Assembly: GCA_963664325.2 (NCBI GenBank)
Contig: CAXXDQ010000003.1
Location: forward strand, 1,146,169 to 1,210,168
Source of the DNA: Desulfomonilia bacterium
Lineage (GTDB): Bacteria; Desulfobacterota; Desulfomonilia; UBA1062
DNA length: 64,000 nucleotides
Direction of reading: 5' to 3'
Shown here: positions 36,012-64,000 of the stretch, in pieces
Position numbering within the stretch: position 1 is the stretch's first letter
Layout: each line of letters opens with the position of its first letter
The notes under the pieces: model-generated
The model's database searches: none
Told to the model about the DNA's origin: nothing
What the model saw: the letters and a program-made list of their open reading frames with translations, nothing else
Made by a program: the position numbers and the translations under genes

Positions 36012-36097
36012 TTCCCGGCCCTGGGGCAGGGTGGACTTGCAGTGCTGGAAGCCGTTTGGTTGATGGTGATACATTATTTACATTATGGGAGGAATAT

Positions 36098-41716: not shown

Positions 41717-41949
41717 GACGGATAAATGGCATCAGGCCTTTACGGCTTGTTGCCCTGATGAGATTTCAGGGGGCCTGATTTTGCGGGATTGATAATCCAT
41801 TTCATCATGCATGAGTTTTTACCAGGATACTTTGAGAATTGATCATTAGGCTTCCAAATATGAACCTGAGTATCGGTGAATCCGTTAAATCGATTCCTGC
41901 TGTCTTCCCGATCAGAGGCATTATATTGTCAATTTTCTTCTCTGGCTTG

Positions 41950-42190: not shown

Positions 42191-42202
42191 AATCTCAACT
42201 CA

Positions 42203-45009: not shown

Positions 45010-46551
45010 ATGAATAAAACGTTATGTATAATGATCAGTTTGTTTGTTTTTCTTGTACAAGGATGCATTTTGACTTCATCACCCAAGTCCCCACTGGAAC
45101 TTGCTGTTGGGTCTTCAGCGACATTATCGATCTTAGTATTGCCAAATAAAGCATCTATCACATGGTCAATTGACAACAATATAATCCAGGGTGCTGTAAC
45201 AGCAAAACTAGTCTATACTCCTGCGTGCAGTGACATTGGACAGCACGTAATCAAGGTCACTGAATCATCGAAATTAGGCACTTACTCACATGTCTGGGAA
45301 GTTAATGTCAGCGGCCAGAATTGCAGTTGGGGGTGGAATGGAAAAGAGCTCGTGAAGACGGATATATCTGTCAACTGCGCTTTTCCAAACATTGCTGTGA
45401 GTAACAACGGTACTGCAATTGCGGTATGGCGTCAGGAGAATGATTTTAGAATATGGGCCAGTCATTACACGCCTGGTATGGGTTGGAGTGTGGCTCAAAA
45501 AATTGTTAATGTCATTTCAGATCCACCTCAGATAGCTATGGATTCTTTCGGAAATGCAATCGTGATTGTGAATGCTCTAGTTGTTAGTACACCACCATAT
45601 TCACTATGTGCTGTTCGATATGATAATAACACGGGGTGGGAGGCTCCCGTTGTAATAAATGATGGATCAGGTGGGAGTCCGTTAAGCAACAAGATTGCTA
45701 TGAACAATAATGGAAATGCCATAGTAACATTCTATCAAAATTCACATATCAAGGCTATCCACTATACCCCAGATTCTGGATGGGGTGAACAGATCATAAT
45801 TGATAATATTAATAAATATATGCCTGATAATGCACTTGATATGAATGATAATGGAGAAGCGATAGCTGCTTTCAGCACATATAATCCCTGGTACCCGTGG
45901 GCGAATACATATGATTCTATTATGGGTTGGGGCACAGCTCAAATGTTAGAAGGGAGTCCTCAAGGGAGCACCTTCACATGCGATGTTTCTATAAATGATA
46001 ACGGAGACGCATTCGTGATTGCATTTGATTATACAGGAGATAATACCGTTTACGCCGGCAGATATCTGAAAGGTATAGGGTGGGAAAATCTTCAACCAAT
46101 CGGTTATTGGGGAACTGTTGAAGGTGGTTGTGGTTCAGTCATTAAGATGGATAATGATGGAAACGTCGTGGCGGTATGGAATTCGAGATCGCCAGAAAAT
46201 ATCTGGGAAAATACATACATTAATGGTGCAGGCTGGGGAACACCGCATGCAATATCAGTAAGAGTCGATTCTTCACCAGAAATGGCAAGTGATGCTGCAG
46301 GAAATGCTATTGCCGTATGGTCACGGTATGAGCATGTCTCACCTTATGTTTATCATATATGGGCATGGCGATATATTTCAGGGACTGGCTGGAGTGAGCC
46401 AGAACGTCTTGAACAGGATTCTGATTTGGGCGCTACATCTCCAAAAATCTCTATGAATGATAAAGGAGAGGCATTTGTTGTGTGGCGACAGAAGAATGGT
46501 TCAGTTGATAATGTCTATTGCAACAGATACACATATTCAATTTTCCCCTGA
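45010..46551 (+). CDS. Lipoprotein with an N-terminal Ig-like module and an 8-unit repeat (beta-propeller-like) domain; function unknown
   Basis: The start MNKTLCIMISLFVFLVQGC carries a lipobox. Repeats of about 48 aa follow, matching p.IaMd..GNAIavW......i.a..Y....GW..p..l. Confidence 0.75.
   Translation: MNKTLCIMISLFVFLVQGCILTSSPKSPLELAVGSSATLSILVLPNKASITWSIDNNIIQGAVTAKLVYTPACSDIGQHVIKVTESSKLGTYSHVWEVNVSGQNCSWGWNGKELVKTDISVNCAFPNIAVSNNGTAIAVWRQENDFRIWASHYTPGMGWSVAQKIVNVISDPPQIAMDSFGNAIVIVNALVVSTPPYSLCAVRYDNNTGWEAPVVINDGSGGSPLSNKIAMNNNGNAIVTFYQNSHIKAIHYTPDSGWGEQIIIDNINKYMPDNALDMNDNGEAIAAFSTYNPWYPWANTYDSIMGWGTAQMLEGSPQGSTFTCDVSINDNGDAFVIAFDYTGDNTVYAGRYLKGIGWENLQPIGYWGTVEGGCGSVIKMDNDGNVVAVWNSRSPENIWENTYINGAGWGTPHAISVRVDSSPEMASDAAGNAIAVWSRYEHVSPYVYHIWAWRYISGTGWSEPERLEQDSDLGATSPKISMNDKGEAFVVWRQKNGSVDNVYCNRYTYSIFP
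45322..46548 (+). repeat. Seven full and one split copy of a coding repeat of about 45-52 codons (protein-level repeat, diverged at DNA level)
   Basis: The units begin at about residues 145, 191, 244, 291, 339, 391, 441 and 494 of the 532-aa track ORF. The last unit lacks the GW half. An orphan GW half (SWGWNGKELVKTD) precedes unit 1, which suggests velcro closure. Confidence 0.7.
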
Positions 46552-46744
46552 AAATGTTTTTTGAAAGAAATATTATTAACGAATGAATAGATTGAAAAAC
46601 TATATAGCGTTAAGCGTGATAGCAAGTTGTAGCAATATGGTTGTCTTGGGCAATAGTTGAGAAATCTAATATTTTTAAAAAATAAGTAAAGGGGTAAATA
46701 CCAATAAATTATATGTTAATAAAATTATTTTATGGGAGGATCCA

Positions 46745-48811
46745 ATGAAAAGATCGTTATTGTTTCTTGTATTCATTATATCTGCCATAGTGATAACCGG
46801 TTGCGCAGCCCCGACATTTGATCCTCCTTCAGGGAACTATCCGGAGGATATTTCTGTTGAACTCAGTGCCAAGATAAGCTCACAGCAAATCTATTACACT
46901 ACAGATGGCAGTGATCCCTCAACTTCATCAAACCAATATGCTTTTCCCATTCAGGTATCGGGGAATGGAACGAACATGACCATTAAGGCAATAACGGTAA
47001 TGTTTGGGATTTTCAAGAGCAAGGTAGCCAGCGCGGACTATAAGATAGAGTATGGTGTTATCCAGCCTCCACAGTTCTCACCAATTGCCGGGCAGTATGA
47101 CAATCCAGTCGATGTGACCATCACCAGCGCCACAGGCGGGTCTGCAATCTATTACACCTTAGATGGCACAGATCCAACCACTTCATCATCGAAATATACT
47201 TCCCCTATCCATATAAGCAGTAACAAACGCATCAGGGCATTCGCTGTCTACAAGACATGGCAGAGTACCATAGCCGAGGCCGACTATCTGATCGGCTGCA
47301 TGGATTCAAGCAGCAGTTGGGGCGACCCACATTTCCACACCTATGACGGCCTGGTCTATCACGATCAGTCCATAGGAGAGTTCGTGCTGACGCAGGAGAA
47401 AGGCGGCACCGGTTTCGCGGTACATGTCCGTGAAGCGAGGATCAGCGGCTTTTCCCCATGCGTTACACTCAATACTGCCCTTGCTGTGAGACTTGACACG
47501 AACAAGGTGGAGTACCGCGCCTCCAGCAACGAGATCCTTGTTGACGGAGTTGTAGTGGCTCTTGCCGAAGGAGTGACAATGACACTGAGCGGTGGAGGGA
47601 CAGTCCGTCGCCAGAGCGGTATAGTATGCAGCGACTCCAACTCCATTGAAACTGTCATAGCGAGGGATGCGGGGAACTATGTGAACATAACGGTAGTGGT
47701 AGCCTGCTCCCTTCAGGGTAAGCTTGAGGGCCTATTGGGCAATGATGATGACAATGCCAGCAACGAATTGCTGCTGCGCAACGGGACTACTGCTCCTACA
47801 CTTAAAGCATTTATGGATTCCTGGCGCCTCAGTAATGCAGAATCATTGTTCTCATATGTCATTGGTCAGAATACTAATTATTTCACGGATTTCCAGACTT
47901 GCGATATTCATCCTACGGATGATGATATCGCACTTGCACAGAAGATATATAACGAAATTTTCGGTTCTATCGCTTGCGATGCTGGAATGGTATACGCAAT
48001 CGCCGTGGATCTGGCAGCTGGAATGCCAGAGGATGAAGTCAAGGCATGGGGAAGGAGCATCCAGGGGTATGTCGCCCCAAAGGGTACACTCTGGTACCAA
48101 GATGTTGATGGAGATGGATATGGAACTGTTGAAGTTTCAAAGGTCTCTTGCTCGAAACCATCTGGCTATGTTGACAACTCTGAAGATTGTGATGATACCA
48201 ACCCTGATGTCAATCCTGAAGCCGATGAGATTATTGGTGATGGAATCGACAATAACTGCAATGGATTGATTGATGAAACCAATATGTTAGGACCATTACC
48301 ATATTTAAGTTTTTCTGATAGCCCTTTCAGGAATCTGAGTTTTTCATATTTCTATCTTGAGGATTTTGAAGACGGTATACTGAATACACCTGGTGTAAGT
48401 GCTAACAATAGTAATGTTGGAGGGATGAATCCCTATGCAGATTCCGTGGATCGTGATGATGGTGTGATTGATGGCAATGGGAATAATGGACACTCTATAT
48501 ATTTGAGTAGTGACACAAGTGACACCTTTACTTTCGATAAAAATGTTTTAGGTAAGCTTCCCACTTATGCTGGAATAGTATGGACAGACGCCGGTTCCGG
48601 TTATGGGAATGTTACATTTACCGCATTTGATGAATATGGATTAAGTTTAGGCTCTATATCTGCAATGCATCTGGGAGATGGATCAAATAGAGGCGGTACA
48701 GCTGAAGACAGATTTTTCGGTGTCATCTATATGGCGGGCATCTCAAAAATTACAATAGCAATGAATAGTGGAAATTGGGAAATCGATCATCTTCAATACG
48801 GAGCAAAGTAA
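46745..48811 (+). CDS. Mosaic lipoprotein: two chitobiase/hexosaminidase-C-like domains, a von Willebrand factor type D domain, a MopE-like Asp/Cys metal-binding motif and an unknown C-terminal domain
   Basis: The lipobox is VITGC. The CHB_HEX_C-like domains contain FDPPSGNY...IYYTTDGSDPSTSS and FSPIAGQY...IYYTLDGTDPTTSS. The VWD domain contains WGDPHFHTYDGLVYHDQSIGEFVL...LEGLLGNDDDN. The MopE-like motif is WYQDVDGDGYGT..CSKPSGYVDNSEDCDDTNPDVNPEADEIIGDGIDNNCNGLIDE. Confidence 0.8.
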   Translation: MKRSLLFLVFIISAIVITGCAAPTFDPPSGNYPEDISVELSAKISSQQIYYTTDGSDPSTSSNQYAFPIQVSGNGTNMTIKAITVMFGIFKSKVASADYKIEYGVIQPPQFSPIAGQYDNPVDVTITSATGGSAIYYTLDGTDPTTSSSKYTSPIHISSNKRIRAFAVYKTWQSTIAEADYLIGCMDSSSSWGDPHFHTYDGLVYHDQSIGEFVLTQEKGGTGFAVHVREARISGFSPCVTLNTALAVRLDTNKVEYRASSNEILVDGVVVALAEGVTMTLSGGGTVRRQSGIVCSDSNSIETVIARDAGNYVNITVVVACSLQGKLEGLLGNDDDNASNELLLRNGTTAPTLKAFMDSWRLSNAESLFSYVIGQNTNYFTDFQTCDIHPTDDDIALAQKIYNEIFGSIACDAGMVYAIAVDLAAGMPEDEVKAWGRSIQGYVAPKGTLWYQDVDGDGYGTVEVSKVSCSKPSGYVDNSEDCDDTNPDVNPEADEIIGDGIDNNCNGLIDETNMLGPLPYLSFSDSPFRNLSFSYFYLEDFEDGILNTPGVSANNSNVGGMNPYADSVDRDDGVIDGNGNNGHSIYLSSDTSDTFTFDKNVLGKLPTYAGIVWTDAGSGYGNVTFTAFDEYGLSLGSISAMHLGDGSNRGGTAEDRFFGVIYMAGISKITIAMNSGNWEIDHLQYGAK

Positions 48812-48835
48812 CTTATAATTTTAAAGGAGGATACA

Positions 48836-49702
48836 ATGAAAAGATCATCAATGTACATTATGTTTGGCTTAATGGTTATTCTTATTCAGGGATGTATCAT
48901 GTCATCAACTCCATCTTCACCTGTATCTGTTTCAGCAGGTGACTCGATAACATTCAAGGTCTCTGTATTCCCATCGAGCATTACCTTGCAGTGGTATGTT
49001 GATGATAATCCTGTTTCAGGTGCTCCAGACAAATCTTTCAACTATTCCCCTGATGAAGGAGATGTAGGCAATCGCACTATCACTGTTAAGGAGACCTCTG
49101 GATGTATCTTCCTTGGACAACATGTCTGGAGGGTAGAGGTAGTCTCTGGGAAAATCTGGTATCAGGATGCCGATGGAGACGGTTACGGCAATCCAAATGT
49201 CTTCATAATCAGCAGCACACAGCCAGAAAGTTATGTGGATAATAATTCTGATTGTGATGATACTAATCCAAACATCAATCCAGATGCTATAGAGATTTCT
49301 GGGAATGATATTGACGAAAATTGTGATGGTATTATTTCAAGTGGTATAGTGAATATTAATGCAGTAATAAATATACAATCAAATCCGGTAACATTAGTTA
49401 TGGAAGCTGGTAAATATAAAATAGACCCAATTGGAATTGCAGATGGGGGGATTTATAATTCATGGAGCGCTTGGGTTGATGGGAAATGGCTTAATTCTTA
49501 TTGGATATATTCAAATGAATTTGGTGAAATAACTATCAACGATGGGATAAGGTATGATACTGAAATGGATGCCTTAGATGCAGCAAAGGGAACATCATTT
49601 AACCTTACAGGCAGTGCTGAAGTTAAATTTTATATTTGTGATGATCCATATTATGACAATAGAGGGGGGATGTCATTAAGTGTTTCGAAAAAAACAGAAT
49701 AA
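48836..49702 (+). CDS. Lipoprotein with an N-terminal Ig-like module, a MopE-like Asp/Cys motif and an unknown C-terminal beta-rich domain
   Basis: The lipobox is LIQGC. The Ig-like module is VSVSAGDSITFKVSVFPSSITLQWYVDD. The MopE-like motif is WYQDADGDGYGNP...YVDNNSDCDDTNPNINPDAIEISGNDIDENCDG. A GGAGGA RBS lies upstream. Confidence 0.75.
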   Translation: MKRSSMYIMFGLMVILIQGCIMSSTPSSPVSVSAGDSITFKVSVFPSSITLQWYVDDNPVSGAPDKSFNYSPDEGDVGNRTITVKETSGCIFLGQHVWRVEVVSGKIWYQDADGDGYGNPNVFIISSTQPESYVDNNSDCDDTNPNINPDAIEISGNDIDENCDGIISSGIVNINAVINIQSNPVTLVMEAGKYKIDPIGIADGGIYNSWSAWVDGKWLNSYWIYSNEFGEITINDGIRYDTEMDALDAAKGTSFNLTGSAEVKFYICDDPYYDNRGGMSLSVSKKTE

Positions 49703-50277
49703 GCGCAGTAATATAAGGGCTATTTGAGAAATATTAAAAAAACAAGACCGGGACGTTGATAACTATTTAGTCCCCTTGACTTTATGGCCAGTTATGGAAA
49801 CGAAGTGCCCGGCCTTGATGGTCTGTTGCCTTGATGTGATTTTTGAAGATTAGATTTTGAAAGGTACAAGGTTAATTTGCTCAGACACGGGCATTTCTCA
49901 AAGCAATAATCTGAAGATTTCGTATTAATTTTTCAGAAAGGAAGCTGAAAATCATAGAATGAGGGGCAATCCCCCTTGTTTTTTCTGTAGTTGCTCCGAC
50001 TTGATCTGATAGTTCTCCTTTCTGATTTTGTTTTTATTACCCCTCAGAAAGAATAGCTCGTGGGTACTCTTCCATTAAGCACCCTCCTGTCAGATTTGAT
50101 CGGAACTATTACATTTATATTCTTTACAAATTCTATGATTAATATTCGCAACAACTAGAGTTTGTAAATTATACCTTCATGTTTGGTTGAACAATTTTTT
50201 GTTTAAATGTTATACAGGCTAGAGGTGATTCATCCATCGCATAATCTCATGGACACTGCTATTTTGAATTTATATAG

Positions 50278-50470
50278 GTTGCCTTGATTTATACCCTCAC
50301 AGATGACGCCTGAGCCGCCGAAAGCATCGCATGAAGATGGAGCATGCCGGACAGCACTCCATCTCTAAGGTACAATGAGCCGATATTAAAATCCGTCAAA
50401 GGCTCGAATCCGGTGATTCCTGTCCCGCGGCGCAACTTCTGCTTGAACCTTCAGGCGTATTATAGGGAAT
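50278..50470 (+). pseudogene. Decayed remnant of the 3' end of a phosphoesterase-family gene (paralog of 38008..40518)
   Basis: Region 50302-50455 aligns without gaps to 40351-40504 at roughly 70% identity by hand count. It translates as WSMPDSTPSLRYNEPILKSVKGSNPVIPVPRRNFCLNLQ, versus WSMPDQTPPLRHNELIWKSIKGVNSVMPAPRHNISLNLQ, with in-frame TGA codons upstream. Confidence 0.75.
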
Positions 50471-50655
50471 GACTTGCGGGATATGTCCCATTTCCATAAG
50501 GGGGAGTATGCCGATTAAAGCAATATGATGTGTTCCAATATGCGGATTATTTATTATGGAAGTTCCCTGTGAGCACACGACTTTTTTCTTTCCCTCAACC
50601 TTTGGCGTATAGTAAATAAGATACATTTGAGGATTATTACTGCAAAGGGGGAAAG

Positions 50656-52020
50656 ATGAGTAAGCATAAAATGAGCAGACGGGATATCATTACTCTGGCG
50701 CTTCTGTTCATCATGACACTGCTGTTGTTTGCGGACCAGATGATAATGTCGGCCATACTTCCTGAACTGTCGCGGGAATATGGGGCAAGTGAGACGACGC
50801 TGGGCCTGATCGGTTCCGCCTTTACTTTAGTCGGCGCCTTCATGAGCATCGTTTTCGGCTATGTTGCAGACAAAGCTTCGCGCAAGGTATTGCTCGTCAT
50901 AGTAATCCTCATCGGTGAAATCCCCTGCATTTTCACCGGTATCCCGTTCTTCACCCAGACGATAGGCTCTTTCGCTACACTGCGTTTGCTTTCCGGCATC
51001 GGATTGGGTGGGGTCCTTCCGGTGACCTATTCGGTCCTTGCCGATTATTTCAAGGAAGAGCATCGGGCGACGGCCTCGGCCTGGATGAACACGGCCTGGG
51101 CCGTTGGCGGCATCCTGGGCGTGGTCCTGGCCGGGTATCTCACCAACATCTACGGATGGAGGATTTCCTTCATCCTGATCGGTGTCCCCAACGTCCCCAT
51201 TGCACTTTTCTTCGCATTGTATGCAAAGGAGCCTGCCCGCGGAAGGACCGAGGATGCCCTGGAAGATCTTATTGAAAAGGGCCTGGTTTATAAACAGACC
51301 ATCCGCCTGAGCGACTTCAAGATCATCCTCCTGAACCGGACCAACCTGTACACGTTCCTCCAGGGTATCCCCGGGTGTGTGCCCTGGGGTATCCTTACCT
51401 ACTGGGCGATCACCTTCTTCCAGGAATACCGCCACATGACCAAGGAAATGGCCACTACGATATTCCTGGTGCTCGGCATCGGCAGTACAGTGGGCGGGCT
51501 GTTCTTTGCATATCTCGGAGAGTGGCTTTACAAGAAGTCTCCGAAGTACATGCCGATCTTGTGCGGGAGCATGGTGCTCATCGGCATTATCCCCAGCGTG
51601 ATCCTGCTTAATATGTCGGCGGCCAACTTCACGGTTTACCTCGTATTGGGCTTCTTTGTGGGGTTCCTCATCTCAGTGGGCATAGCCAATGTTCCGGCCA
51701 TTATCATGAACGTCAACCGGCCTGAGCACCGCGGGACTGTCTTCTCCGTTCTTAATATCACCGGAAATATAGGACAGGGATTGGGGCCGGCCATCGGCGG
51801 CCTGCTGGTACCCTTCGGCTACCTGCTAACCATGAATTTCGCCGTATCCTGGTGGATTCCCTGCGGACTGCTCCTTTTCATGGTCGCACGCTATATCACC
51901 CGGGACCGGGAATCGTTGCGCCGTCTCATGGAAGAACGCGCCGGTGCCATGATCGCTGACACAACAGCCGGGAATAAGACAGACGATATGACCCTCAAGG
52001 GGAATCCTGCAGGTCGGTGA
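50656..52020 (+). CDS. MFS transporter
   Basis: About 12 TM segments are present, and the MFS motif GYVADKASRKVLL lies between TM2 and TM3. Confidence 0.85.
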   Translation: MSKHKMSRRDIITLALLFIMTLLLFADQMIMSAILPELSREYGASETTLGLIGSAFTLVGAFMSIVFGYVADKASRKVLLVIVILIGEIPCIFTGIPFFTQTIGSFATLRLLSGIGLGGVLPVTYSVLADYFKEEHRATASAWMNTAWAVGGILGVVLAGYLTNIYGWRISFILIGVPNVPIALFFALYAKEPARGRTEDALEDLIEKGLVYKQTIRLSDFKIILLNRTNLYTFLQGIPGCVPWGILTYWAITFFQEYRHMTKEMATTIFLVLGIGSTVGGLFFAYLGEWLYKKSPKYMPILCGSMVLIGIIPSVILLNMSAANFTVYLVLGFFVGFLISVGIANVPAIIMNVNRPEHRGTVFSVLNITGNIGQGLGPAIGGLLVPFGYLLTMNFAVSWWIPCGLLLFMVARYITRDRESLRRLMEERAGAMIADTTAGNKTDDMTLKGNPAGR

Positions 52021-54301: not shown

Positions 54302-55550
54302 GTGGGTAGAAAACCCTTGCAAACGCAAAGCGGAGATATCAATACCAGGGACCGTCTTCTTAATGCCGCGCTTCATGAGTTTAACGAAAAGGGATACTAT
54401 CTTACGAATGGTGACACCATTACCAAGCACGCAGGATTGGGGCACGGAACTTTCTATATTTATTTCAAGAACAAAAATGAAGTGCTTATAGAGCTTTTGC
54501 GCCGGTCTACCACAGCCATTCCATATACCGCCTATCGCGATGATCCGCATTATCTAATACGAAATTCCGGCAGCCCTGCAGAGTTCGAAGCGGCAATCAT
54601 GGAGCTGGTCAAACCCTTATTCGAAATTCCGGGATTGCTCAGGGCTTTTTTCAAGGGCATGTTGCAGGATCGAGAGATCATCGCCTTCGGGATGAAAATC
54701 GGGCAGGATCTGGCCCACATGTTCAAGCTCATCATCGCTGCACGCCAGAAAGAGGGTGTATTGCGGGAATGTGATGCCAGCATGTTGTCAAAAATCATTA
54801 CGGTATGTCTCTCGGCCTCGATATTGTTAACGACCGCCCGGATCATCACGTGCAGCCCGAAGGTGTTGATCCGCAATCTGTGCGGGATCGTTATCCCGGT
54901 GCTCTTCCCGGACAAGCAGCGCAAAAAGTCCGGCAGGATCAGGATGGCCAGTCTGGAAAATGATAAGAAAATCAGGCATGAGCTGCTCAAGGCCGCCAGG
55001 GAAGAGTTTATTGCACATGGTTACTTCGAGGCAAAGATCGCTCACATTACCAAAAGATCAGGCTGCTCCCGTCGCACCTTTTATCACTATTATAAAAACA
55101 AAGATGAACTTATGAGAGAGCTCTTCCTTGAAATGCTGAGGAGCTTATATCCGCAGGCCGATACGCGCAGTAATTTCATAGAAGCACTTGATGCTGCATC
55201 CATAGAGGATTTGGTGAGTCTCCTGACCCGGATTATACAGGCCTTTGATACCCCGATAAATTGGGCATTCTTGCAGGGATTCTTCAATAGTTCCGAACTG
55301 ACGCAGGACTACAATGAAATTTTTGCCCTCTACAGCGATTTGATCATGAAAAAGATTGTAATGTTGCAGGCTCAGGGACTGTGCACTGGCGTGGATCCCG
55401 GGGGTGGCGGCATATATCATCGTGGCAACGGTCAGTTATACGGCCTTTCTGCGCTCGGCCGGTTTTATCGAAGGTTCCGTACACAAATGCGCAGTAAATC
55501 TGGGTTGGTTTCTTTTATTCTTCGTTAACCATATGCCGTCAGGAAATTGA
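54302..55550 (+). CDS. Tandem-duplicated TetR/AcrR-family regulator (two HTH plus ligand-domain modules); C-terminus shifted at a G5 run
   Basis: The HTH modules are RDRLLNAALHEFNEKGYYLTNGDTITKHAGLGHGTFYIYFKNKNEVL and RHELLKAAREEFIAHGYFEAKIAHITKRSGCSRRTFYHYYKNKDELM. Reading G5 at 55400-55404 as G4 gives DPGVAAYIIVATVSYTAFLRSAGFIEGSVHKCAVNLGWFLLFFVNHMPSGN*, ending at 55550. Confidence 0.8.
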
Positions 55551-55704
55551 TGCCGACCTTCCTTCGGTACATCAAATTCGCTCATTCTTAGTTTAGATAA
55601 AACAGTTCCAAGCTTTTTAAATAAATCTTTCATGCTCCCGTACGCAATATACATGAAGCTTGTTTTACCTTGTCCTTTGATCAGGCATTGGCATGGTCAT
55701 AAAA

Positions 55705-55836
55705 TGACTAACTGCGCAATAAAAAGTAATAATTAATGATGACAATGAGACAATCACGAAAATAATTAATGTGACAAATAGTGACTATAATGTGCTTGAC
55801 ATTGTATTGCGTATAATATACCCAAGTGACTAACTG
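55705..55836 (+). promoter_or_regulatory. Candidate operator/promoter region: perfect 10-bp direct repeats flanking TATAAT boxes
   Basis: TGACTAACTG occurs at 55705-55714 and 55827-55836. Related GTGAC(A/T)A copies lie at 55771 and 55781. TATAAT occurs at 55786-55791 and 55812-55817, and TTGACA at 55796-55801. The region sits between the TetR gene and the flavoprotein operon. Confidence 0.4.
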
Positions 55837-55889
55837 TGAAAATAAAACCTTTAGCGTCTTGATATTTTGTCCGATTGGGAGGGAACTAG

Positions 55890-56549
55890 ATGGAAGCACA
55901 ATCACGTATAATATGGGATTTTCTTCGATTGTCATACCAGCGCGGCCTGATGGATGAATTGATGGCATTGGGGAATCTGTTGAATCCCGATATGGATCTG
56001 GTCGATGCCCTTGAGAATTTTGAAGAAGTGGTAATGGCCAAGGATCTGGAACCATTCACCACGGTCTGGCAGGAACAGATAGAGCCCTTGATCAAGTCCA
56101 TGACCAATGCCCGGAGTATTGACGCTCTGCGAGCAATCCTGCAAACACTGCGCCCTTTGCTGACAAGGTTCGCCGCCGGAGCTGGAAACGTGGAATTGCT
56201 CAACACCATGCAGGCTGTGGTGAACCTAAAACCTCACATTACTGTACTGCTGCACGATCTGGGGCCGCTGGCCATCCCTTACATGCAAAAGTTTTTGCAT
56301 GAAAATTCAGGAAAACTCCTGGGCCGGGGTCTGAATGCCATGAGCATTGCTATACTTCAAACTCACAAGCAGCAGCCAAAAATAATCAAGGATGTTTTTA
56401 CCGATCTTTTCCAAACACTTGATACCGGTCAGTTTGGTAAGGCCATGGAAATTATCCTGGGCGATTTCCTCGATCAACGTCCGAAGATTGTGCGCTGGTC
56501 GCTTGGGGCCACCTTCTCACGGATTAGGAAACGTTTAACGCATTCATAA
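55890..56549 (+). CDS. Hypothetical helical protein, first gene of the flavoprotein/ETF operon
   Basis: It has a GGGAGGGA RBS, is 219 aa and has no TM segment. I recognise no family. Confidence 0.55.
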   Translation: MEAQSRIIWDFLRLSYQRGLMDELMALGNLLNPDMDLVDALENFEEVVMAKDLEPFTTVWQEQIEPLIKSMTNARSIDALRAILQTLRPLLTRFAAGAGNVELLNTMQAVVNLKPHITVLLHDLGPLAIPYMQKFLHENSGKLLGRGLNAMSIAILQTHKQQPKIIKDVFTDLFQTLDTGQFGKAMEIILGDFLDQRPKIVRWSLGATFSRIRKRLTHS

Positions 56550-56553
56550 GGGG

Positions 56554-58047
56554 ATGAATATGAGTTCAGCCAAAACCATTGCATGGGATGAAATCGTTGG
56601 TGAAGGTGGAGTTATAGCCGACAAGAAAACCCTGAGTTCGTTCAGTAGGGATGGTAGTTTTACCATAGGAAGTCAGCCTCGAAGTGTAGTCAGGCCACGC
56701 AACGCAGTCGAGGTCCGTGAAATAATACAGCTTGCCAATCAAAAGGGCGTTCCTCTCATCCCCCGTTCGTCGACCGGACCGCGTTTTCGCGGCGATACCG
56801 TGCCCCAGGCGCCGGATAGCGTAATAGTTGATCTTGCGGGGATGGATGCCATCCTGCGCCTAGATGTCCGGAACAAGGTGGCTATGATCGAACCCGGTGT
56901 AACCTTCGGTTCCCTCCAGGACGCCTGCGCCAAGGCCGGTTTGCGTGTTCCGGTGCCGCTCCTGCCTCGCCCAGCCAAATCGGTGATGGCAAGCTATTTG
57001 GAGCGTGAGCCCCATACCATCCCCAAGTATCATTGGGATATGTCGGATCCCATCTGCTGTCTTGAGATGGTCTTCGGTACAGGGGACTTCTTCCGTACCG
57101 GTTCAGCGGCCGGACCGGGCACCTTGGAACAGCAGTGGGCCGTGGGCCAGGCCCAAAAGACACCCATGGGACCTTCGCAGACCGATTTCATGAAGATCAT
57201 GCAAGGTTCCCAGGGAACCATGGGCATTGCGACATGGGCTACCATCAAACTGGAGGTTTTGCCCAGGGCGCAGAAAGGCTTCTTTGTGACCGCACCCCGA
57301 CTGGAAGACCTGGTGGATTTCACATATCGCATCCAGCGAGCGAAATTGCCCGATGAATGCTTCATCCTGAACCATGTGACCCTGGCCTCCATAATCTGCG
57401 CCGATGTACGGGAGCGCGACAACCTGATCAAAACCTTGCCGGAGTGGCTTCTCTTCTATGCTGTGGCGGGTTATGAACACTTCCCGCAGGAACGTGTCGA
57501 CTATGTCACGCAGGATATCGCCGAGACCGCCCATATGTGCGGCGTCAATCCCGTTGAGTTCGCGGGCGGAATCTCAGCGCTCAAGCTGTTGTCCCTTCTG
57601 TCACGGCCGAGCGATGAGCCCTATTGGAAGATCAGGCACAGGGGCGGATGCCAGGATATTTTCTTCCTGAATACGCTCGACCGGGCGCATGAGTTTGTGG
57701 CGGAACTCAGGACCGCATGTGCGCGGCATGACTTTCCCGGCAGTGATTGCGGAGTGTATATTCAACCCATCCAGCAGGGCCGCAACGTGCATATCGAGTT
57801 CGAACTCATGTACAACCCGCAGGACACCGCTGCCCTGGAGAGGGTCAAAAAACTCTATGAAGACCTCAGCACGACGACCTCATCACTTGGCGGATTTTTT
57901 TCGCGGCCGTACGGCATCTGGTCCGATCTGGCATATCGTAAATGTCCCGATACGGTCGCAGCCCTGGGCAAGGTCAAGTCGATCCTCGATCCGGGCGGGA
58001 TTATGAATCCAGGAAAACTATGCTTCGGCAAAGGAGTCGAACGATGA
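56554..58047 (+). CDS. FAD-binding oxidoreductase (FAD_binding_4 / GlcD-like, vanillyl-alcohol-oxidase superfamily)
   Basis: The N-terminal FAD-binding PCMH-type domain contains VVRPRNAVEVREIIQLANQKGVPLIPRSS...MIEPGVTFGSL...GSQGTMGIAT. A C-terminal oxidase domain ends ILDPGGIMNPGK. Confidence 0.8.
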   Translation: MNMSSAKTIAWDEIVGEGGVIADKKTLSSFSRDGSFTIGSQPRSVVRPRNAVEVREIIQLANQKGVPLIPRSSTGPRFRGDTVPQAPDSVIVDLAGMDAILRLDVRNKVAMIEPGVTFGSLQDACAKAGLRVPVPLLPRPAKSVMASYLEREPHTIPKYHWDMSDPICCLEMVFGTGDFFRTGSAAGPGTLEQQWAVGQAQKTPMGPSQTDFMKIMQGSQGTMGIATWATIKLEVLPRAQKGFFVTAPRLEDLVDFTYRIQRAKLPDECFILNHVTLASIICADVRERDNLIKTLPEWLLFYAVAGYEHFPQERVDYVTQDIAETAHMCGVNPVEFAGGISALKLLSLLSRPSDEPYWKIRHRGGCQDIFFLNTLDRAHEFVAELRTACARHDFPGSDCGVYIQPIQQGRNVHIEFELMYNPQDTAALERVKKLYEDLSTTTSSLGGFFSRPYGIWSDLAYRKCPDTVAALGKVKSILDPGGIMNPGKLCFGKGVER

Positions 58048-59327
58048 CGTTACAGGAACTTAAACCGGATATGGAGGGCTGCGCGCGCTGCTCACACTGC
58101 AAATGGGTACCGCACCTTCAAATCAAGAGCTGGAGATATGCAAAGGTGTGCCCTTCCGTAGACCGCTATCACTTCCACAGCTACTCCGGGGGCGGGAAAA
58201 TGAATATGGGCAACTCGTATCTGGAAGGACGCAGTAAACTCTCGGACACCGTGGCCCAGGTGATCTACCGCTGCCAGCTCTGCGGCGCCTGCCAGGTCTC
58301 CTGCCAATGTTACCGGGACGATATCGATCTGGCGGATGTCCTCCTGGCCATGCGCAGCACATGCGTGGAACAAGGGTACGTGCTGTCAGAACACCTCGAT
58401 ATGATCGAAAGCATGAAACGCGAAGACAATACCATGTACATGCTCAAGGCGGACCGGGGCAAGTGGTCCGAAGGTCTGGACCTTATCGATATCAATCAGG
58501 AAAAAGCGGATGTGCTTTTCCATGCCGGGTGCCGGTACTCCTATGATGAGGATTTGCGCGATATCGTCCGCGGTACCGCCATGCTCCTGAAGTCTTCCGG
58601 CGTGCGCATTGGGGTTGCCGGCAAGGATGAGGCATGTTGCGGCGGCCGGGCTTACGAGATCGGATATCAGAGCGAGATGAAAAACTATGCCGAAGACATG
58701 GCCAGCCGGGTCAAGGCCTCGGGTGCACATACTTTGGTCACCCCCTGCTCGGACTGTTACTATACCTTTAAATATCTCTATCCGAAAAACGGACTCGATA
58801 TGGGGATCAAGGTTCTTCATACAACCGAGTATATGGACCGGCTCATCAAGGAGGGGCAATTCCGTCCGCAGATTGAGATCCCGATCAAAGTAACCTATCA
58901 TGATCCCTGTCACCTCGGCCGCCGGGGTGAGATCTACAAAGGCGGTTGGCAGGGCAACAACAAGCTTATGCGTCCTTCGCGCCTGAAACAGACCGGTAAG
59001 ATGGGCATCTTCGATGCGCCGCGTGATATCCTCACATCCATCCCCGGTGTCGAACTGAGCGAGATGGAGCGTATCCGGGAATTCAGCTGGTGTTGCGGAG
59101 CCGGCGGCGGGGTTCTTGAGGCCGAGCCGGAATTTGCAGCGTGGACCGCTAAGGAGCGGCTTGAAGAAGCGGCCGCTACAGGAGCGGAGGCCCTGGTAAC
59201 GGCCTGTCCCTGGTGTGAACGGGTTTTCAAGGATGCAATAATTGAAAGTGGTTCGCATCTCAAGGTCATGGATGTGATGGAGCTTCTGATCGAATCACTC
59301 AATGGAGGCAGTCATGCTACCACCTGA
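58044..59327 (+). CDS. (Fe-S)-binding protein with two CCG domains (GlcF/HdrD-like)
   Basis: The start overlaps the upstream stop in an ATGA. Cys clusters are CARCSHC, CPS and CQLCGACQVSC. CCG motifs are EACCGGRAYE and FSWCCGAGGG. Confidence 0.85.
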   Translation: MTLQELKPDMEGCARCSHCKWVPHLQIKSWRYAKVCPSVDRYHFHSYSGGGKMNMGNSYLEGRSKLSDTVAQVIYRCQLCGACQVSCQCYRDDIDLADVLLAMRSTCVEQGYVLSEHLDMIESMKREDNTMYMLKADRGKWSEGLDLIDINQEKADVLFHAGCRYSYDEDLRDIVRGTAMLLKSSGVRIGVAGKDEACCGGRAYEIGYQSEMKNYAEDMASRVKASGAHTLVTPCSDCYYTFKYLYPKNGLDMGIKVLHTTEYMDRLIKEGQFRPQIEIPIKVTYHDPCHLGRRGEIYKGGWQGNNKLMRPSRLKQTGKMGIFDAPRDILTSIPGVELSEMERIREFSWCCGAGGGVLEAEPEFAAWTAKERLEEAAATGAEALVTACPWCERVFKDAIIESGSHLKVMDVMELLIESLNGGSHATT

Positions 59328-60918
59328 TGTCTACAAGGAACTGGAAGATGCCCTGGGCGGTGCGGAATACGTAACACAGGAACCGGCGATGCTGGACAGC
59401 TATGCCTGGCAGCCTGCCATAAACCTGGAACCGGAGGCCTGGATTCCGAGGCCCGAGGCAGTGGTAATGCCGCAGACAGTGGAAGAAGTGCAGGCTGTAG
59501 TTCGGATCTGCAACCGTACCGGCTTCAAATACAAGGCCTTCAGCACCGGTTGGGCGTCCTGGGGCGGCCCCGGAGGTCCGGGAGTAGTTCAGATCGATCT
59601 CAGGCGCATGAACCGCATCATTGAGATTGATGAAAAGAATATGTATGCCGTAGTCGAACCGTATGTAAGCGGTGCGCAGCTTCAGTCCGAATTGATCAAA
59701 CGCGGACTGAATTGCCATCTGATAGGCGCGGGTCCGAATTGCGCCCAACTCGCCACGGTCACCTCGGGCTGGGGCTATGGCTGGACCGGTCTCTTTACAG
59801 GATTTTCCGGCCGCAATCCGCTGGGCGTAGAATGGATTCTGCCTGACGGCGAGCTTCTCAAGCTAGGCTCCCCGGGATCGGATAACGCATGGTTCACGGG
59901 TGACGGGCCGGGACCGAGCCTGCGCGGCATCATGCGGGGATGGGGCGGCGCCCAGGGAGGACTGGGGGTGTTTACCAAGGTCGCCATCAAGGTCTATTCC
60001 TGGCCGGGTGAAAAAGATAACGTGAAGACCGGCAAAGGGACATTGCTTGACCTTATGGCCGGGGTGCCGAAAACACACAGGCTCTATTTCCTGTTTTCGC
60101 CCAGTTATGAGAAATTCGCCGATGTGGCTTATAAGATCGGAAATTCCGAGATAGGCTATGTGCACTGCAAGGGCGCCTTCGGAGCCACATTTAATTTCCT
60201 GGCCCCACGCGCCACAAAGAAGCTACTCAACAATCCGGTCATCTACAATATGATGCGGACCTTCCAGCATTGTACACTTTTCATGCTCTGTTGCCACACA
60301 GAGAGGGAACTCGCATTCCAGGAGAAGGTTCTGCGTCAGATCATGGATGAGACCGACGGGTTCATGGTTTGCACGGACTCGCTGCCCTTCAACGGTATGT
60401 TCTGGTGGGGGACGCACCGTTCGATCTTCCCGTGCATTGCAGGGTTCAGGCCGGGCGGCGACTTTTTCACCAGTTTGGGATCGAACCAGACTTATGACAA
60501 CCAGGTCTATGCCTCGAAACTGGCCGAGCCGATCAAGCGCAAGTACATTGATGAGGGGACCTTTTTCGAGGACATGGCGGACTGCACCTGGGGCGGGATC
60601 TATGAGGGAACGAGCAACTGGGGACACATGGAGGAGATTGTCATGTTCGACCGCAGGGATAAGGGAAACTACAAGCGCCGCTACGATTACATGAAGGAAA
60701 CGCTGGACCTCACGATCGAAAAGAGCCTCGGGTTTGGACTCTCGTCACTGGGTGCCGACTACAAGATATACGGCCCGCTCATGTACAACTTCCATCATTG
60801 GCAGAGCAAGATAAAACAGGCATTTGACCCCAATAATGCCTCGGACGGCAGTTTCTATGTGCCGCCTTATGATGAAGTGATCGCCGAGGAAAAGGCCGCG
60901 CTGAAAAAAGAAGCATGA
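59314..60918 (+). CDS. FAD_binding_4-like flavoprotein paralog with an atypical FAD-binding motif
   Basis: VVMPQTVEEVQAVVRICNRTGFKYKAFSTGWASWGG...VVEPYVSGAQL matches the PCMH-type domain layout, but the usual GGG(T/H)S loop reads STGWASWGG. A GGAGG lies 5 nt before the ATG at 59314. Confidence 0.65.
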   Translation: MLPPDVYKELEDALGGAEYVTQEPAMLDSYAWQPAINLEPEAWIPRPEAVVMPQTVEEVQAVVRICNRTGFKYKAFSTGWASWGGPGGPGVVQIDLRRMNRIIEIDEKNMYAVVEPYVSGAQLQSELIKRGLNCHLIGAGPNCAQLATVTSGWGYGWTGLFTGFSGRNPLGVEWILPDGELLKLGSPGSDNAWFTGDGPGPSLRGIMRGWGGAQGGLGVFTKVAIKVYSWPGEKDNVKTGKGTLLDLMAGVPKTHRLYFLFSPSYEKFADVAYKIGNSEIGYVHCKGAFGATFNFLAPRATKKLLNNPVIYNMMRTFQHCTLFMLCCHTERELAFQEKVLRQIMDETDGFMVCTDSLPFNGMFWWGTHRSIFPCIAGFRPGGDFFTSLGSNQTYDNQVYASKLAEPIKRKYIDEGTFFEDMADCTWGGIYEGTSNWGHMEEIVMFDRRDKGNYKRRYDYMKETLDLTIEKSLGFGLSSLGADYKIYGPLMYNFHHWQSKIKQAFDPNNASDGSFYVPPYDEVIAEEKAALKKEA

Positions 60919-60988
60919 AGCGTGTGCGTCGATTCGAACACGGTGAAGGGCATTGATCCTATAGGGCTGATTTAAAAGCGAGGTGCGC

Positions 60989-61978
60989 ATGCACACTGAA
61001 AATCAGGTTCTGGTGTTTCTGGAGATTGACCGGGGTATCCTGCATCCCCTTGCGCCCGAGGTCCTGTCGGCAGGGAAACAGGTGGCGCAGGCCCTGCACG
61101 GTAAACTTGCCACTGTAATTCTAGGTAACGAAATCACTGAAGCGGCACATGAAGTACGTCACTACGGTGCCGATACCGTACATCTCGTTGAGCATCCTCT
61201 GCTGGATACGTATCAGGGTGAATACTTGTGCCTGGCATTGAACGAACTTTGCAAAACATTGAGGCCGGCTGTCATCATTATGGCCAATACGCTGATGGGT
61301 ATCGATCTTGCCCCCAGGCTGGCATGGAAGCTTGATGCCGGGCTGGTCACGGATTGTGTGGCCATTGATGTATCCGGGGACGAACCCGGCTTTTTAAAAC
61401 CGATATACAGCGGCAATGTAATGGCAGAGTACGCCCCGGCCGCCGCAACCTGCCTGGTAACTGTCCGGCCGCGGGCATTCACACCCCGGCCACGAACTGA
61501 TACACCCCAGGGAGAGATAGTACCCGTAACGGTTACACTCGACCCTGCGTCAGTCAAAACCTCACTGGTGGAACGCATTGAGGAGCACAGCGATGGCATC
61601 AGGCTGGAAACGGCAGAAAGGATCGTAGCCGGAGGCCGGGGTATCGGACGGGCAGATGGGTTCATGCTGCTCAAAAACATGGCCGATACTTTGGGCGCCG
61701 CCATCGGCGCCAGCCGGCCGCCCTGTGATCTCGGCTGGGTTTCATCCAATGCCCAGGTGGGACAGACCGGTGAAATCGTTGCCCCAGGCCTCTATATCGC
61801 CGTGGGCATATCCGGTTCAACCCAGCACCTTGCCGGAATGATGGGGTCCAAGACCATAGTGGCCATAAACAAGGACCCTCAGGCCAACATTTTCAAGGTT
61901 GCTGATTATGGAGTTGTAGGCAATTACGAGGATGTGCTTCCGGTTCTCACCGAAACCTTAAAGGAAATCCTGACCTAG
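60989..61978 (+). CDS. etfA: Electron transfer flavoprotein alpha subunit
   Basis: The C-terminal FAD domain is VAGGRGIG...GASRPPCDLGWVSSNAQVGQTGEIVAPGLYIAVGISGSTQHLAGM..SKTIVAINKDPQANIFKVADYGVVGN. Confidence 0.9.
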   Translation: MHTENQVLVFLEIDRGILHPLAPEVLSAGKQVAQALHGKLATVILGNEITEAAHEVRHYGADTVHLVEHPLLDTYQGEYLCLALNELCKTLRPAVIIMANTLMGIDLAPRLAWKLDAGLVTDCVAIDVSGDEPGFLKPIYSGNVMAEYAPAAATCLVTVRPRAFTPRPRTDTPQGEIVPVTVTLDPASVKTSLVERIEEHSDGIRLETAERIVAGGRGIGRADGFMLLKNMADTLGAAIGASRPPCDLGWVSSNAQVGQTGEIVAPGLYIAVGISGSTQHLAGMMGSKTIVAINKDPQANIFKVADYGVVGNYEDVLPVLTETLKEILT

Positions 61979-61988
61979 GAGGCATGCG

Positions 61989-62786
61989 ATGCATATCATA
62001 GTATGTATGAAACAGGTTCCTGACCCCGAAGGGCCTCGTGACGCCTTCTTCGTTAATTCTAAAACAGGCATGGTCGAACCGCGCGGGATACCGCCGGTCT
62101 TGAGCCTCTTTGACGAGAACGCGCTGGAGCTGGCGCTGCGCATCAAGGATGCAGACCCTGCTGAAGTCCATATTACCGTACTCAGTATGGGCAAACGCGT
62201 ACCGGACGCCGTCATGCTCAAGGCCCTGGCCGCCGGAGCGGATGAACTGGTAAAGATCGAAGACGAAAATCTGGATGCAGGACGGCTAGACAGTTTTTCC
62301 ACGGCGCAGGTCCTGGCGGCCGCCATACGAACGAGGCCCTTTGACCTGATAATCGCGGGCAGGCAGGCCGCCGATTTCAACGACGGCCAGGTCGGCATCG
62401 GTTTGTCCCATATTCTAGGGCTCCCGGTTATCACCCTGGTCCGCGCGCTTAAGGTGGGAAGTTGCGATCTGAGGGCTGAACGCTTGCACGCGCATGGCCA
62501 CGAGGTGGTATGTGCGCCGCTGCCGGCGGTTGTCATGGCCAGCAACGAAGTGGGAGAGCTGCGCTATCCATCCATGATCCAGCGTCGCGAAGCAAAGCAA
62601 AAACCTGTTCACTCCTGTTCACTCGGCGATATCGGCCTAACCGTTCCACCCGCCATGCGCCTAACCCGAAAGCGCTTGTTCGCCCCTGATATCAAGCTGC
62701 GCAGCTGCCGGATATTTACAGCCGGTACCCCGGCTGAGGCCGGGCGCAATCTGGCATATCAGCTGCGGGAAGATAGAGTGATTTAG
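61989..62786 (+). CDS. etfB: Electron transfer flavoprotein beta subunit
   Basis: MHIIVCMKQVPDPEGP and LIIAGRQAADFNDGQVG are typical of EtfB/FixA. Confidence 0.9.
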   Translation: MHIIVCMKQVPDPEGPRDAFFVNSKTGMVEPRGIPPVLSLFDENALELALRIKDADPAEVHITVLSMGKRVPDAVMLKALAAGADELVKIEDENLDAGRLDSFSTAQVLAAAIRTRPFDLIIAGRQAADFNDGQVGIGLSHILGLPVITLVRALKVGSCDLRAERLHAHGHEVVCAPLPAVVMASNEVGELRYPSMIQRREAKQKPVHSCSLGDIGLTVPPAMRLTRKRLFAPDIKLRSCRIFTAGTPAEAGRNLAYQLREDRVI

Positions 62787-62812
62787 AGCCCAATACCTGT
62801 AAGGGAGGTCAT

Positions 62813-64000
62813 ATGCAGAAATTCGATATCTGTGTCGTAGGCGCTGGACCGGGTGGTGCCATGGCGGCCAAGACAGCGGCGGAGTCAGGTTTGAAAACCG
62901 TTTTCTTTGAAAGATCGCGGGTGGCCGGGGAAAAGAATTCTTCCGGGTGCGGTCTGGGCCAGCGCTGGTGGCGGGACTTTCCGGAGGTCATGGAAGCCGT
63001 CGGCCACTTGCCCTCGCATCGGGAGATAACACACTGTTTTTTCAAGCTCACGGACGAAGACGACCGGCTGATAACCTCGCTCGGAACAGGACGGACCAAA
63101 CAGGATGATGCCCGTATCATGTATAAAGGTATTGGACGGGGCATGACCGGCTGCAGCGTGTACCGTTGCGACCTGGACCCCCTCCTGGTTGACATGGCCT
63201 GTGAGGCAGGGGCCGAACTGCGAACGTCAACCCTGATTACCGATGTCATCAAGGAGAACGGCCGGGTTACGGGTGTGGTGACTGAGAAAGGGGAAAAGAT
63301 CGAATCCGACATCGTAATCGCCGCGGATGGGGCGCACTCGACCGTTGCCATCAAGTCCGGGATTCGCAAGCGTTTTCAAAAAAAGGACATCACTTTGGTG
63401 CCCCAAATCGATTTCGGCTGCAACGCCTCCAAACTCGATGACGTGATCGGCACCGCCAACTGGGTGTGGTTCGGTCCATATTGCGGGGCCTATCAGGTCG
63501 TGTTCAAAGACGGTTTTCATCTGGGTACCGGCCAATGGCTTGACATCTGGGATGGCAAACCGGTTGATATGCTCAAGGCGGTCATGAAGATCCCTGCATT
63601 TCAAGCCATGTGCAGGGCCGTGGACGCCAAGATGCGAGAATTCCAGATACATCTGCTGCCATGGGGAACCCGTCCCGGCAGGACCTATGATGACGGAGTA
63701 ATGCTGATCGGCGATGCAGGCGGATTTCCCTGTCCGCTGGAGGCCGAAGGCGTCTGGCATGCCTGCATGACAGGGAGGATCGCGGCCAAGGTCGCGGCCA
63801 GGGCGATTTCAGCCGGCAATCCTTCCAAGGCCTTTTTAGCCGAGTACGAGCACCTTTGGAAGCGTCCTCGGTCGGCGGCGAATACCGCTTCGGCAAGGAA
63901 TATGTAGGCCTGTGGCGCGCCACCGCTTTTGACCCCGTGTTCATGAAAACCATGGGGAGCTTTCTCGGGGAACTTCAATCGATCTCTTTTCCGGCCCGGT
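62813..64000 (+). CDS. fixC: FixC-like FAD-dependent oxidoreductase (ETF-quinone oxidoreductase / geranylgeranyl-reductase family); one frame break; 3' end beyond the window
   Basis: The Rossmann motif is FDICVVGAGPGGAMAA, and GDAGGFPCPLEAEGVWHACMTGRIAA is present. The track ORF stops at 63907, but a -1 shift near 63858-63863 continues as ASSVGGEYRFGKEYVGLWRATAFDPVFMKTMGSFLGELQ... and stays open to the window end. Confidence 0.7.

Follow-up and report, generated by a model that had tools for sequence, protein, structure and literature searches.

Benzene activation by strict anaerobes has long been an open problem, for which 2 groups independently named an extremely abundant heterotrimeric flavoprotein in 2026. 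In the benzene-degrading ORM2a, the 3 most abundant proteins are an FAD-binding oxidoreductase, an (Fe-S)-binding protein, and a second FAD-binding oxidoreductase (“Magic” proteins #24-26), which are predicted to assemble as a GlcDEF-like heterotrimer, with a proposed part in benzene activation (PMC13101534); in the marine sulfate reducer BzS1, the same trio (BzS1_12970-90) makes up approximately one fifth of the proteome and has been called a “putative benzene dehydrogenase” (PMC13416013). In the 2 papers, the trio is treated as nearly confined to benzene degraders, its electron partners are guessed, and a bifurcation-like mechanism is raised as speculation (PMC13101534, PMC13416013). The study of BzS1 also reports homologues with 23% to 42% identity in organisms that do not degrade benzene, in which other metabolic functions are thought likely, and names a separate abundant electron transfer flavoprotein (ETF), EtfAB, as the suspected electron acceptor of the trio (PMC13416013). 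Here, we describe a 64,000-nucleotide stretch of a Desulfomonilia bacterium genome (contig CAXXDQ010000003.1; hereafter, the window), which carries an operon encoding a trio of this kind together with its own ETF and a Fix-type module. Judged by sequence, the window's trio is a distant relative of the flavoprotein named in 2026, a kinship absent from the preliminary description of this DNA, and forms a sister subfamily of a kind recognized only in that year and still biochemically uncharacterized.

Other described systems share parts of the operon. As in Escherichia coli GlcDEF, the trio joins 2 FAD_binding_4 subunits to a CCG-type Fe-S subunit. As in EtfABCX and FixABCX (Thermotoga maritima 7KOE and Azotobacter vinelandii Fix), genes for a large and a small ETF subunit stand together with FixC-like and FixX-like genes. 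The overall fold of one of the flavoproteins is that of the VAO/PCMH 4-alkylphenol oxidases and hydroxylases (PCMH 1DII, 4-ethylphenol oxidase 7PBG, eugenol oxidase), which dehydrogenate their substrates independently of oxygen and use an external electron acceptor. Finally, the Fe-S subunit resembles EtfD, which takes electrons from ETF and wires ETF to menaquinone (PMC13083937).

The operon and its gene products

The window (G000:C3:1146169-1210168) ends 731 nt before the end of its contig. All 7 open reading frames (ORFs) of the preliminary description were confirmed at their coordinates on the forward strand, and the Pfam domains bear out the gene order that it gave: a 219-aa all-helical accessory protein (55890..56549) just upstream of a 497-aa flavoprotein, FADa (56554..58047), followed by a soluble 427-aa Fe-S protein (58044..59327), a second flavoprotein, FADb (538 or 534 aa; 59302/59314..60918), the large (alpha/FixB-type) ETF subunit (331 aa; 60983..61978), the small (beta/FixA-type) ETF subunit (265 aa; 61989..62786), and a FixC-like FAD protein of approximately 480 aa, which begins at 62813 and runs past the window end to approximately 64244. 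The consecutive gaps from the 219-aa gene through fixC are 4, -4, -14 to -26, 64, 10, and 26 nt, and no convincing terminator was found on the forward strand inside the operon. As had been noted, the start of the Fe-S gene overlaps the FADa stop in an ATGA, a start common to homologues; for FADb, the likely start is 59314 (534 aa), as homologues begin at residue 5 of the longer ORF. The domains likewise agree with the earlier view that a GlcDEF-like architecture is tied here to EtfA-EtfB and a Fix-type module. NCBIfam matches of the operon proteins are all far under the curated cut-offs (for the TfrB model, 152 bits against a cut-off of 385).

FADa combines FAD_binding_4 with FAD-oxidase_C and FADb carries FAD_binding_4 only; both belong to the VAO/PCMH superfamily, and their mutual identity over the FAD domain is 23%. 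They match phenol oxidases, PCMH, D-lactate dehydrogenase, glycolate oxidase, and alkyl-dihydroxyacetone phosphate synthase (ADPS) about equally, the top PDB sequence match of FADa being mouse D-lactate dehydrogenase (LDHD). With an AF2 model of FADb (pLDDT 73), Foldseek returned the whole VAO/PCMH family (TM 0.64 to 0.71; 4-alkylphenol oxidases at E 5e-24 to 1e-22), and the VAO/PCMH, D-lactate dehydrogenase, and ADPS subfamilies were not separable. Unlike the phenol enzymes, to which it is 17% to 20% identical, FADb is partnered by an Fe-S protein and an ETF, not by cytochrome c.

The resemblance to GlcDEF ends at the domain architecture. The GlcD model (TIGR00387, cut-off 567.9 bits) gives 71.3 bits for FADa and 51.7 bits for FADb, and the GlcF model (NF008434, cut-off 333) gives 24.3 bits for the Fe-S subunit; furthermore, the Fe-S gene stands in the middle of the trio, and the trio is coupled to an ETF and FixCX. 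GlcE is shorter than GlcD, whereas the second flavoprotein of the window is larger than the first. In the HMMER alignment of FADa to mouse LDHD (8JDC; numbering offset of 13 inferred from Ile407), the GEHG of the mouse enzyme faces RPYG, so that the positions of Glu442 and His443 are occupied by Pro and Tyr. In mouse LDHD, these are catalytic or metal-binding residues (PMC10589216), and their replacement makes a 2-hydroxyacid dehydrogenase unlikely.

The Fe-S subunit (Fer4_8 and 2 CCG domains) contains 2 ferredoxin-type Cys motifs and 2 complete CCG motifs. Its best solved relative is Mycobacterium smegmatis EtfD (9OJN residues 407-746, E 1.4e-28), with which it shares 2 [4Fe-4S] motifs and 2 CCG domains. 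This apparent kinship with an ETF-oxidizing protein also goes beyond the preliminary description. Unlike EtfD, the window's protein has no N-terminal heme-b membrane domain and begins at the ferredoxin-like domain; its first CCG motif retains Cys-Cys, where EtfD has Cys-Thr, and it has Asp at the position of EtfD His583. Hdr-like non-cubane clusters are therefore predicted, rather than linear [3Fe-4S] clusters. Elsewhere in the genome, further HdrD-like matches lie within longer open frames of 725-1054 aa.

The 219-aa protein has no match in Pfam or NCBIfam, and an Atlas search returned only a lead of 0.77 to a hypothetical cluster. Its AF2 model is all-alpha and weak (pTM 0.47). Homologues are encoded upstream of FADa in 10 loci, and a shorter form of approximately 115-165 aa, homologous to the N-terminal 90 or so residues of the 219-aa protein (hhalign 90.9%, E 1.2e-6), is found in 7 further trio loci.

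Relationship to the benzene-type trio

The first 400 residues of the ORM2a proteins, taken from the supplement, are by eye homologous to FADb, the Fe-S protein, and FADa. Two of 7 ORM2a peptides occur exactly in the loci L092/L102; in the protein set searched, the ORM2a peptides had no match, and a degenerate pattern for one of them had none in metagenome contigs. The L102 trio has the gene order FADa>Fe-S>FADb, and its full-length identity to the window's trio is 35% for FADa (E 5e-93), 34% for the Fe-S protein (E 2e-66), and 25% for FADb (E 1e-27).

The window's trio and the benzene-type trio share the succession of a flavoprotein with an oxidase_C domain, an Hdr-like Cys-rich protein, and an FAD-only flavoprotein, with a TetR regulator nearby. 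Whereas benzene-type orthologues are 63% to 89% identical to one another, the 25% to 35% separating the window from L102 places it in a different subfamily. The second CCG motif is lost from the benzene-type Fe-S protein, whereas both are intact in the window's, and the CoA-ligase, MaoC, and CoA-transferase genes that neighbor the benzene-type trio are missing here: no AMP-ligase, MaoC hydratase, or class III CoA-transferase neighbor appears in the window annotation. The window's operon also differs in containing EtfAB, FixC, FixX, and the 219-aa helical protein.

A further subfamily, termed here type-2, has the same gene order and is 33% to 39% identical in the Fe-S protein and FADa; among 401 genomes sampled from the phylum (Desulfobacterota), 54 carry it. 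The superfamily is thus a large one, with the window's trio as one of its branches and a single studied branch, which is linked to benzene. In 4 of 8 type-2 loci inspected (L094, L095, L096, L097), the trio adjoins a 3-subunit molybdenum enzyme of the xanthine dehydrogenase family, a layout that resembles hydroxybenzoyl-CoA reductase clusters; the neighbors in various type-2 loci include acyl-CoA ligase, TetR, and acyl-CoA dehydrogenases. Within the loci with the molybdenum enzyme, 3 of 4 have an acyl-CoA ligase or TetR (L094 both, L095 only TetR, L096 only the ligase), with neither seen in the scan of L097.

Conservation and distribution of the module

Scanning species-representative genomes brought up 445 relatives, from which 72 loci were kept; many of them end at contig ends, and the locus counts are lower bounds. 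FADa>Fe-S>FADb was found in 26 of the 72, and 6 more are cut or rearranged, giving 32 trio loci. The expectation that the association of the cluster would be conserved was borne out across phyla: EtfAB accompanies the trio in 16 of the 32 loci, FixC in 10 (9 of them with FixX as well), both in 7, and one or the other in 19. The small helical protein is encoded in 17 trio loci and a TetR gene in 11. Synteny of the trio extends over Syntrophaceae, other Desulfobacterota, Actinomycetota, Dehalococcoidia, Syntrophomonadaceae, Hadarchaeota, and Methanolliviera, and to judge from these comparisons, the arrangement is not a chance one.

Identities across the loci are 45% to 90% for the Fe-S subunit, 45% to 78% for FADa, and 40% to 89% for FADb; FixC ranges from 29% to 76%, with a main class at 58% to 76% and a second class at 29% to 38%. 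FADb stands alone in the other 40 loci, and 9 loci hold 2 copies of it. At least 7 FADb loci were counted in one metagenome-assembled genome (MAG) of Actinomycetota, compared with a single FADb in the window's own genome. We propose that FADb is a variable, interchangeable, substrate-specific subunit; the conservation pattern and the many stand-alone paralogues fit such a specificity subunit set on a constant core.

Searches with FADb and with FADa each returned more than 3,000 matches, all of them unnamed or bearing generic names only (“FAD-binding oxidoreductase,” “glycolate oxidase”). The flavoprotein matches span Desulfobacterota, Actinomycetota, Chloroflexota, Firmicutes, Spirochaetes, and several archaeal lineages, those of FADb being found in MAGs of Syntrophaceae (88%), Spirochaetes, Desulfobacterales, Actinomycetota, Methanolliviera, Lokiarchaeia, and Helarchaeota. 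Of the 52 genomes in the window's order, 7 have the FADb family, which is found in none of the 3 other genomes of the genus. FixC of the window's type occurs in 4 of the 52, all of them FADb carriers, and in none of the 45 genomes lacking FADb. The nesting of one distribution within the other indicates that the module is a patchy accessory trait with its own FixC.

Genes neighboring the paralogues encode TetR regulators, long-chain acyl-CoA ligases, aldehyde:ferredoxin oxidoreductases, acyl-CoA dehydrogenases, and thiolases, as well as START and lipocalin-like proteins and CrtI-family enzymes, a context that points to hydrophobic substrates ending in beta-oxidation. In line with the earlier supposition that the substrate is uncharacterized, searches of the literature yielded no orthologous cluster with a proven one.

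Several loci of the scan are of interest in their own right. Actinomycetota MAGs carry a FADb-FixC-FixX unit in tandem repeat (L046 484-8057 and L061 3570-10675), with the second FixC copy 37% to 38% identical to the FixC of the window. A group of Actinomycetota FADb orthologues (L040, L043, L044, L048, L056, L058, L062, L067) occupies a fixed, housekeeping-like context between 2 unknown 347-aa proteins, near Crp, MurT/GatD-like genes, and ribonucleotide reductase, and comes without the Fe-S subunit. Glycyl-radical enzymes of the PFL2/dehydratase subfamily are encoded a few kb from the module in 3 loci (L007 1422-3923, L033 2593-5124, L037 15226-17592).

ETF, FixC, and FixX

The large ETF subunit (ETF and ETF_alpha domains) and the small one (ETF domain) have as their closest solved relatives bifurcating ETFs throughout: CarDE 6FAH (E 2e-66 and 9e-31), T. 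maritima EtfABCX 7KOE, and Bcd-Etf 5OL2. The motifs that mark group-2 ETFs are RPxFGG and GxxSPTxV, and replacement of the RPxFGG Arg abolishes ferredoxin reduction in T. maritima (PMC10734219). In the large subunit of the window, KPIYSGN takes the place of RPxFGG, and 15 of 17 module-linked ETFs have Lys for the group-2 Arg. None of the 19 complete small subunits aligned, the window's included, contains GxxSPTxV; in that of the window, RxGV is shifted, with PRGI instead, and AADFNDGQVG corresponds to AIDGDTAQVG of the solved bifurcating ETFs. Pfam found no ferredoxin domain on the window's ETF. These residues do not support the suggestion of a canonical bifurcating ETF; by its motifs, the window's ETF is probably non-bifurcating, and the module-linked ETFs form a type of their own, near the bifurcating ETFs in sequence yet without their hallmark residues. 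The preliminary description had also taken the etfA-etfB order for an exception. The order itself was seen, but it is the norm for this module, as 16 of 17 adjacent ETF pairs in related loci have the large subunit before the small.

As assembled, the FixC-like frame has an apparent stop at 63907 and continues in 2 other frames. Independent contigs (run X1, depth 6.8; run X2, depth 2), which come from one sample that may be the source of the assembly itself, have an additional G after L002:1126 (window 63857) and an additional C after L002:1259 (63990). Aligned to the FixC of L003, the nearest relative, whose 482-aa orthologue is intact, this genome likewise has these two 1-nt gaps. The frameshifts thus stem from errors of assembly, and the gene is intact, running to approximately 64244. 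A fixX gene just beyond the window had been anticipated, and a FixX-like ferredoxin of 99 aa is indeed encoded 290 nt past the window end (equivalent of 64290-64589; L002 1559-1858); it is a 2x[4Fe-4S] ferredoxin with 2 CxxCxxCxxxC motifs. The single-base losses relative to the independent contigs (window 63857 and 63990, and L002 1883) imply that other genes of the assembly may carry false frameshifts. One possible case is a DEAD-box helicase ORF (17015-17908) whose match to the DEAD domain profile begins only at position 100 and which is followed by approximately 2.9 kb (17908-20794) without an ORF of at least 150 aa.

The FixC-like protein, assigned by Pfam to FAD-dependent oxidoreductase families, scores 75 bits with the FixC model NF007542 (cut-off 610) and 117 bits with the geranylgeranyl-reductase (GGR) superfamily model (cut-off 159). 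Its best solved match is T. maritima EtfC (7KOE_C, E 6.4e-23), aligned over residues 3-361 and leaving a C-terminal region of approximately 120 aa unaligned; GGR 3OZ2 is the second best and aligns only in 3 short pieces. Compared with EtfABCX and FixABCX, the window thus differs in lacking both group-2 ETF motifs, in a FixC far below the FixC cut-off, and in that the genes are tied to the flavoprotein trio instead of standing alone.

Proposed function and alternative explanations

We regard it as an even call that the operon encodes a TetR-controlled, oxygen-independent dehydrogenase in which FADb binds the substrate, FADa and the Fe-S protein collect the electrons, and the dedicated ETF passes them to FixX/FixC. 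In this scheme, FADa, the HdrD/EtfD-like Fe-S protein, and FADb would form a heterotrimer, possibly assisted by the 219-aa helical protein, that oxidizes an organic substrate, probably a hydrophobic or poorly activated one, without oxygen. FADa and the Fe-S protein would be the conserved electron-collecting core and FADb the swappable specificity subunit; we infer that electrons leave through the Fe-S subunit to the dedicated, probably non-bifurcating ETF and from there, by way of the FixX ferredoxin and the FixC flavoprotein, would reach a membrane quinone or another lipophilic acceptor. The double TetR regulator upstream would turn the operon on when the substrate is present. Tight gene spacing, conserved synteny, the phyletic nesting of FixC within FADb carriers, the distinct ETF type, the EtfD kinship of the Fe-S subunit, the conservation pattern, the context of the paralogues, and the benzene-type relatives all argue for this dehydrogenase. 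Several observations weigh against it. In this 95.6%-complete genome, the 5 marker families searched for the 2 known menaquinone pathways, namely, MqnA/D (Pfam), MenA, MenB, MenD, and MqnC, are all under cut-off, which leaves a menaquinone sink unproven. The FixC-like protein has a higher score for the GGR superfamily than for FixC, albeit below cut-off for both. ETF is not always the link, as 8 of the 40 FADb-only loci have FixC(X) and none has an ETF. Complete CCG motifs, as in catalytic heterodisulfide reductases, mean that the Fe-S subunit could carry out chemistry beyond serving as a relay. Finally, the published hypotheses on the benzene-type relatives favor a redox-neutral or bifurcation-like reaction over simple dehydrogenation.

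An alternative, raised in the preliminary description, is an electron-bifurcating or confurcating supercomplex, in which EtfAB-FixCX would work as EtfABCX or FixABCX does (with NADH, quinone, and ferredoxin), or a VAO-type flavin would bifurcate, so that oxidation of a difficult substrate is coupled to a second, favorable electron transfer. All 4 Fix-type genes are present, the closest solved ETFs are without exception bifurcating, T. maritima EtfC is the best solved match of FixC, and the speculation of both 2026 papers concerns a related trio; nevertheless, we consider this unlikely, given that the essential RPxFGG Arg is Lys here and in nearly all module-linked ETFs, that GxxSPTxV is missing from every small subunit aligned and RxGV is shifted, and that the ETF has no ferredoxin domain and the operon, searched with Pfam, encodes no NAD(P)H-binding protein. 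Quite unlikely, in our assessment, is an internal redox couple or reverse flow, with ETF and FixX feeding FixC as a GGR-type double-bond reductase, or with the trio itself as terminal reductase; a single hydrophobic or isoprenoid-like pathway would then have its oxidation and reduction steps joined without quinone. There are analogies for such wiring: E. coli FixABCX is thought to feed CaiA. A study of Fusobacterium reports a canonical ETF that links a dehydrogenase directly to a reductase (PMC12630350). The best NCBIfam match of the FixC-like protein (GGR superfamily) and its second-best solved match (3OZ2) agree with this idea, as do the 5 menaquinone-pathway markers under cut-off, the FADb-FixC-FixX triplets without ETF that occur twice in tandem (L046, L061), and the CrtI-family, CrtC-lipocalin, and START neighbors of some loci. 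Against it, EtfC aligns continuously where GGR does so in fragments, isoprenoid-type neighbors are confined to a minority of loci, and no isoprenoid enzyme is encoded in the window.

An ordinary GlcDEF-type D-2-hydroxyacid (glycolate or D-lactate) dehydrogenase that lies by chance beside a housekeeping ETF and ETF-quinone oxidoreductase is very improbable, even though the domain architecture is that of GlcDEF, homologues are annotated as “glycolate oxidase,” and mouse D-lactate dehydrogenase heads the PDB matches of FADa. The hydroxy-acid substrate entertained in the preliminary description is not favored by the GlcD (71 against 568 bits) and GlcF (24 against 333 bits) scores, by the Pro and Tyr at the Glu442 and His443 positions, or by the equal matches of FADb to phenol oxidases, D-lactate dehydrogenase, and ADPS. 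Nor is this FixC type a housekeeping one: among the 52 genomes of the order, only 4 have it, all of them FADb carriers, and the 3 other genomes of the genus lack the operon. A Moorella-type lactate/EtfABCX scheme was set aside because there is no NAD-dependent lactate dehydrogenase here and the ETF is non-canonical.

Probable regulator and surroundings of the operon

Directly upstream of the operon on the forward strand lies a gene for a double TetR-family regulator (408 aa, 2 TetR_N domains; 54302..55528), which is probably the operon repressor; the same double-TetR gene stands directly upstream of the module in L003, L004, and L006. The AT-rich intergenic region of 361 nt between the regulator and the 219-aa gene (55529..55889) has repeats and promoter-like hexamers, including 2 copies of AARTGACTAACTGYG-like boxes (55702-55725 and 55824-55847). 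It probably holds the promoter and, we infer, the operator.

Approximately 5 kb upstream of the operon is a low-GC stretch (0.38-0.44 at 48000-50999; region 41760-50999), which fits an accessory region; downstream of it are genes for an MFS transporter, a metallo-beta-lactamase-fold protein, and an unknown 355-aa protein. At 29969-37789, another protein with a CCG domain (400 aa) is encoded beside an enoyl-CoA hydratase, 2 acyl-CoA ligases, and a long acyl-CoA dehydrogenase with an Acyl-CoA_dh_C extension, forming a separate beta-oxidation cluster. Close to the start of the window, a 247-aa protein (3117-3860) matches the eukaryote-typical ERG2/sigma-1 receptor family (E 8.5e-38); its gene is neighbored by those of a glycosidase, a galactokinase, and 2 URO-D-like proteins.

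Implications

The electron carriers encoded in the operon itself suggest where the electrons of this enzyme family go. The sister subfamily to which the window belongs is useful in being widespread, in being tied to a dedicated ETF and FixCX, and in having a variable, multi-copy FADb; it offers a testable electron path, a testable assignment of the specificity subunit, and perhaps members more tractable for expression. The window also defines an ETF type that lies near the bifurcating ETFs yet is devoid of their hallmarks. A broader and rather doubtful reading, which we put forward tentatively, is that the trio proteins constitute a large platform, shared across domains, by which unreactive C-H substrates are attacked without oxygen, and of which the benzene enzyme would be one specialized branch, with FADb swapped according to substrate and the native outlet hard-wired in the present operon (Hdr-like Fe-S protein to a new, non-canonical ETF type to FixCX). 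If that reading is true, the operon would be a complete, transplantable module for a chemistry that has resisted study in slow-growing benzene cultures.

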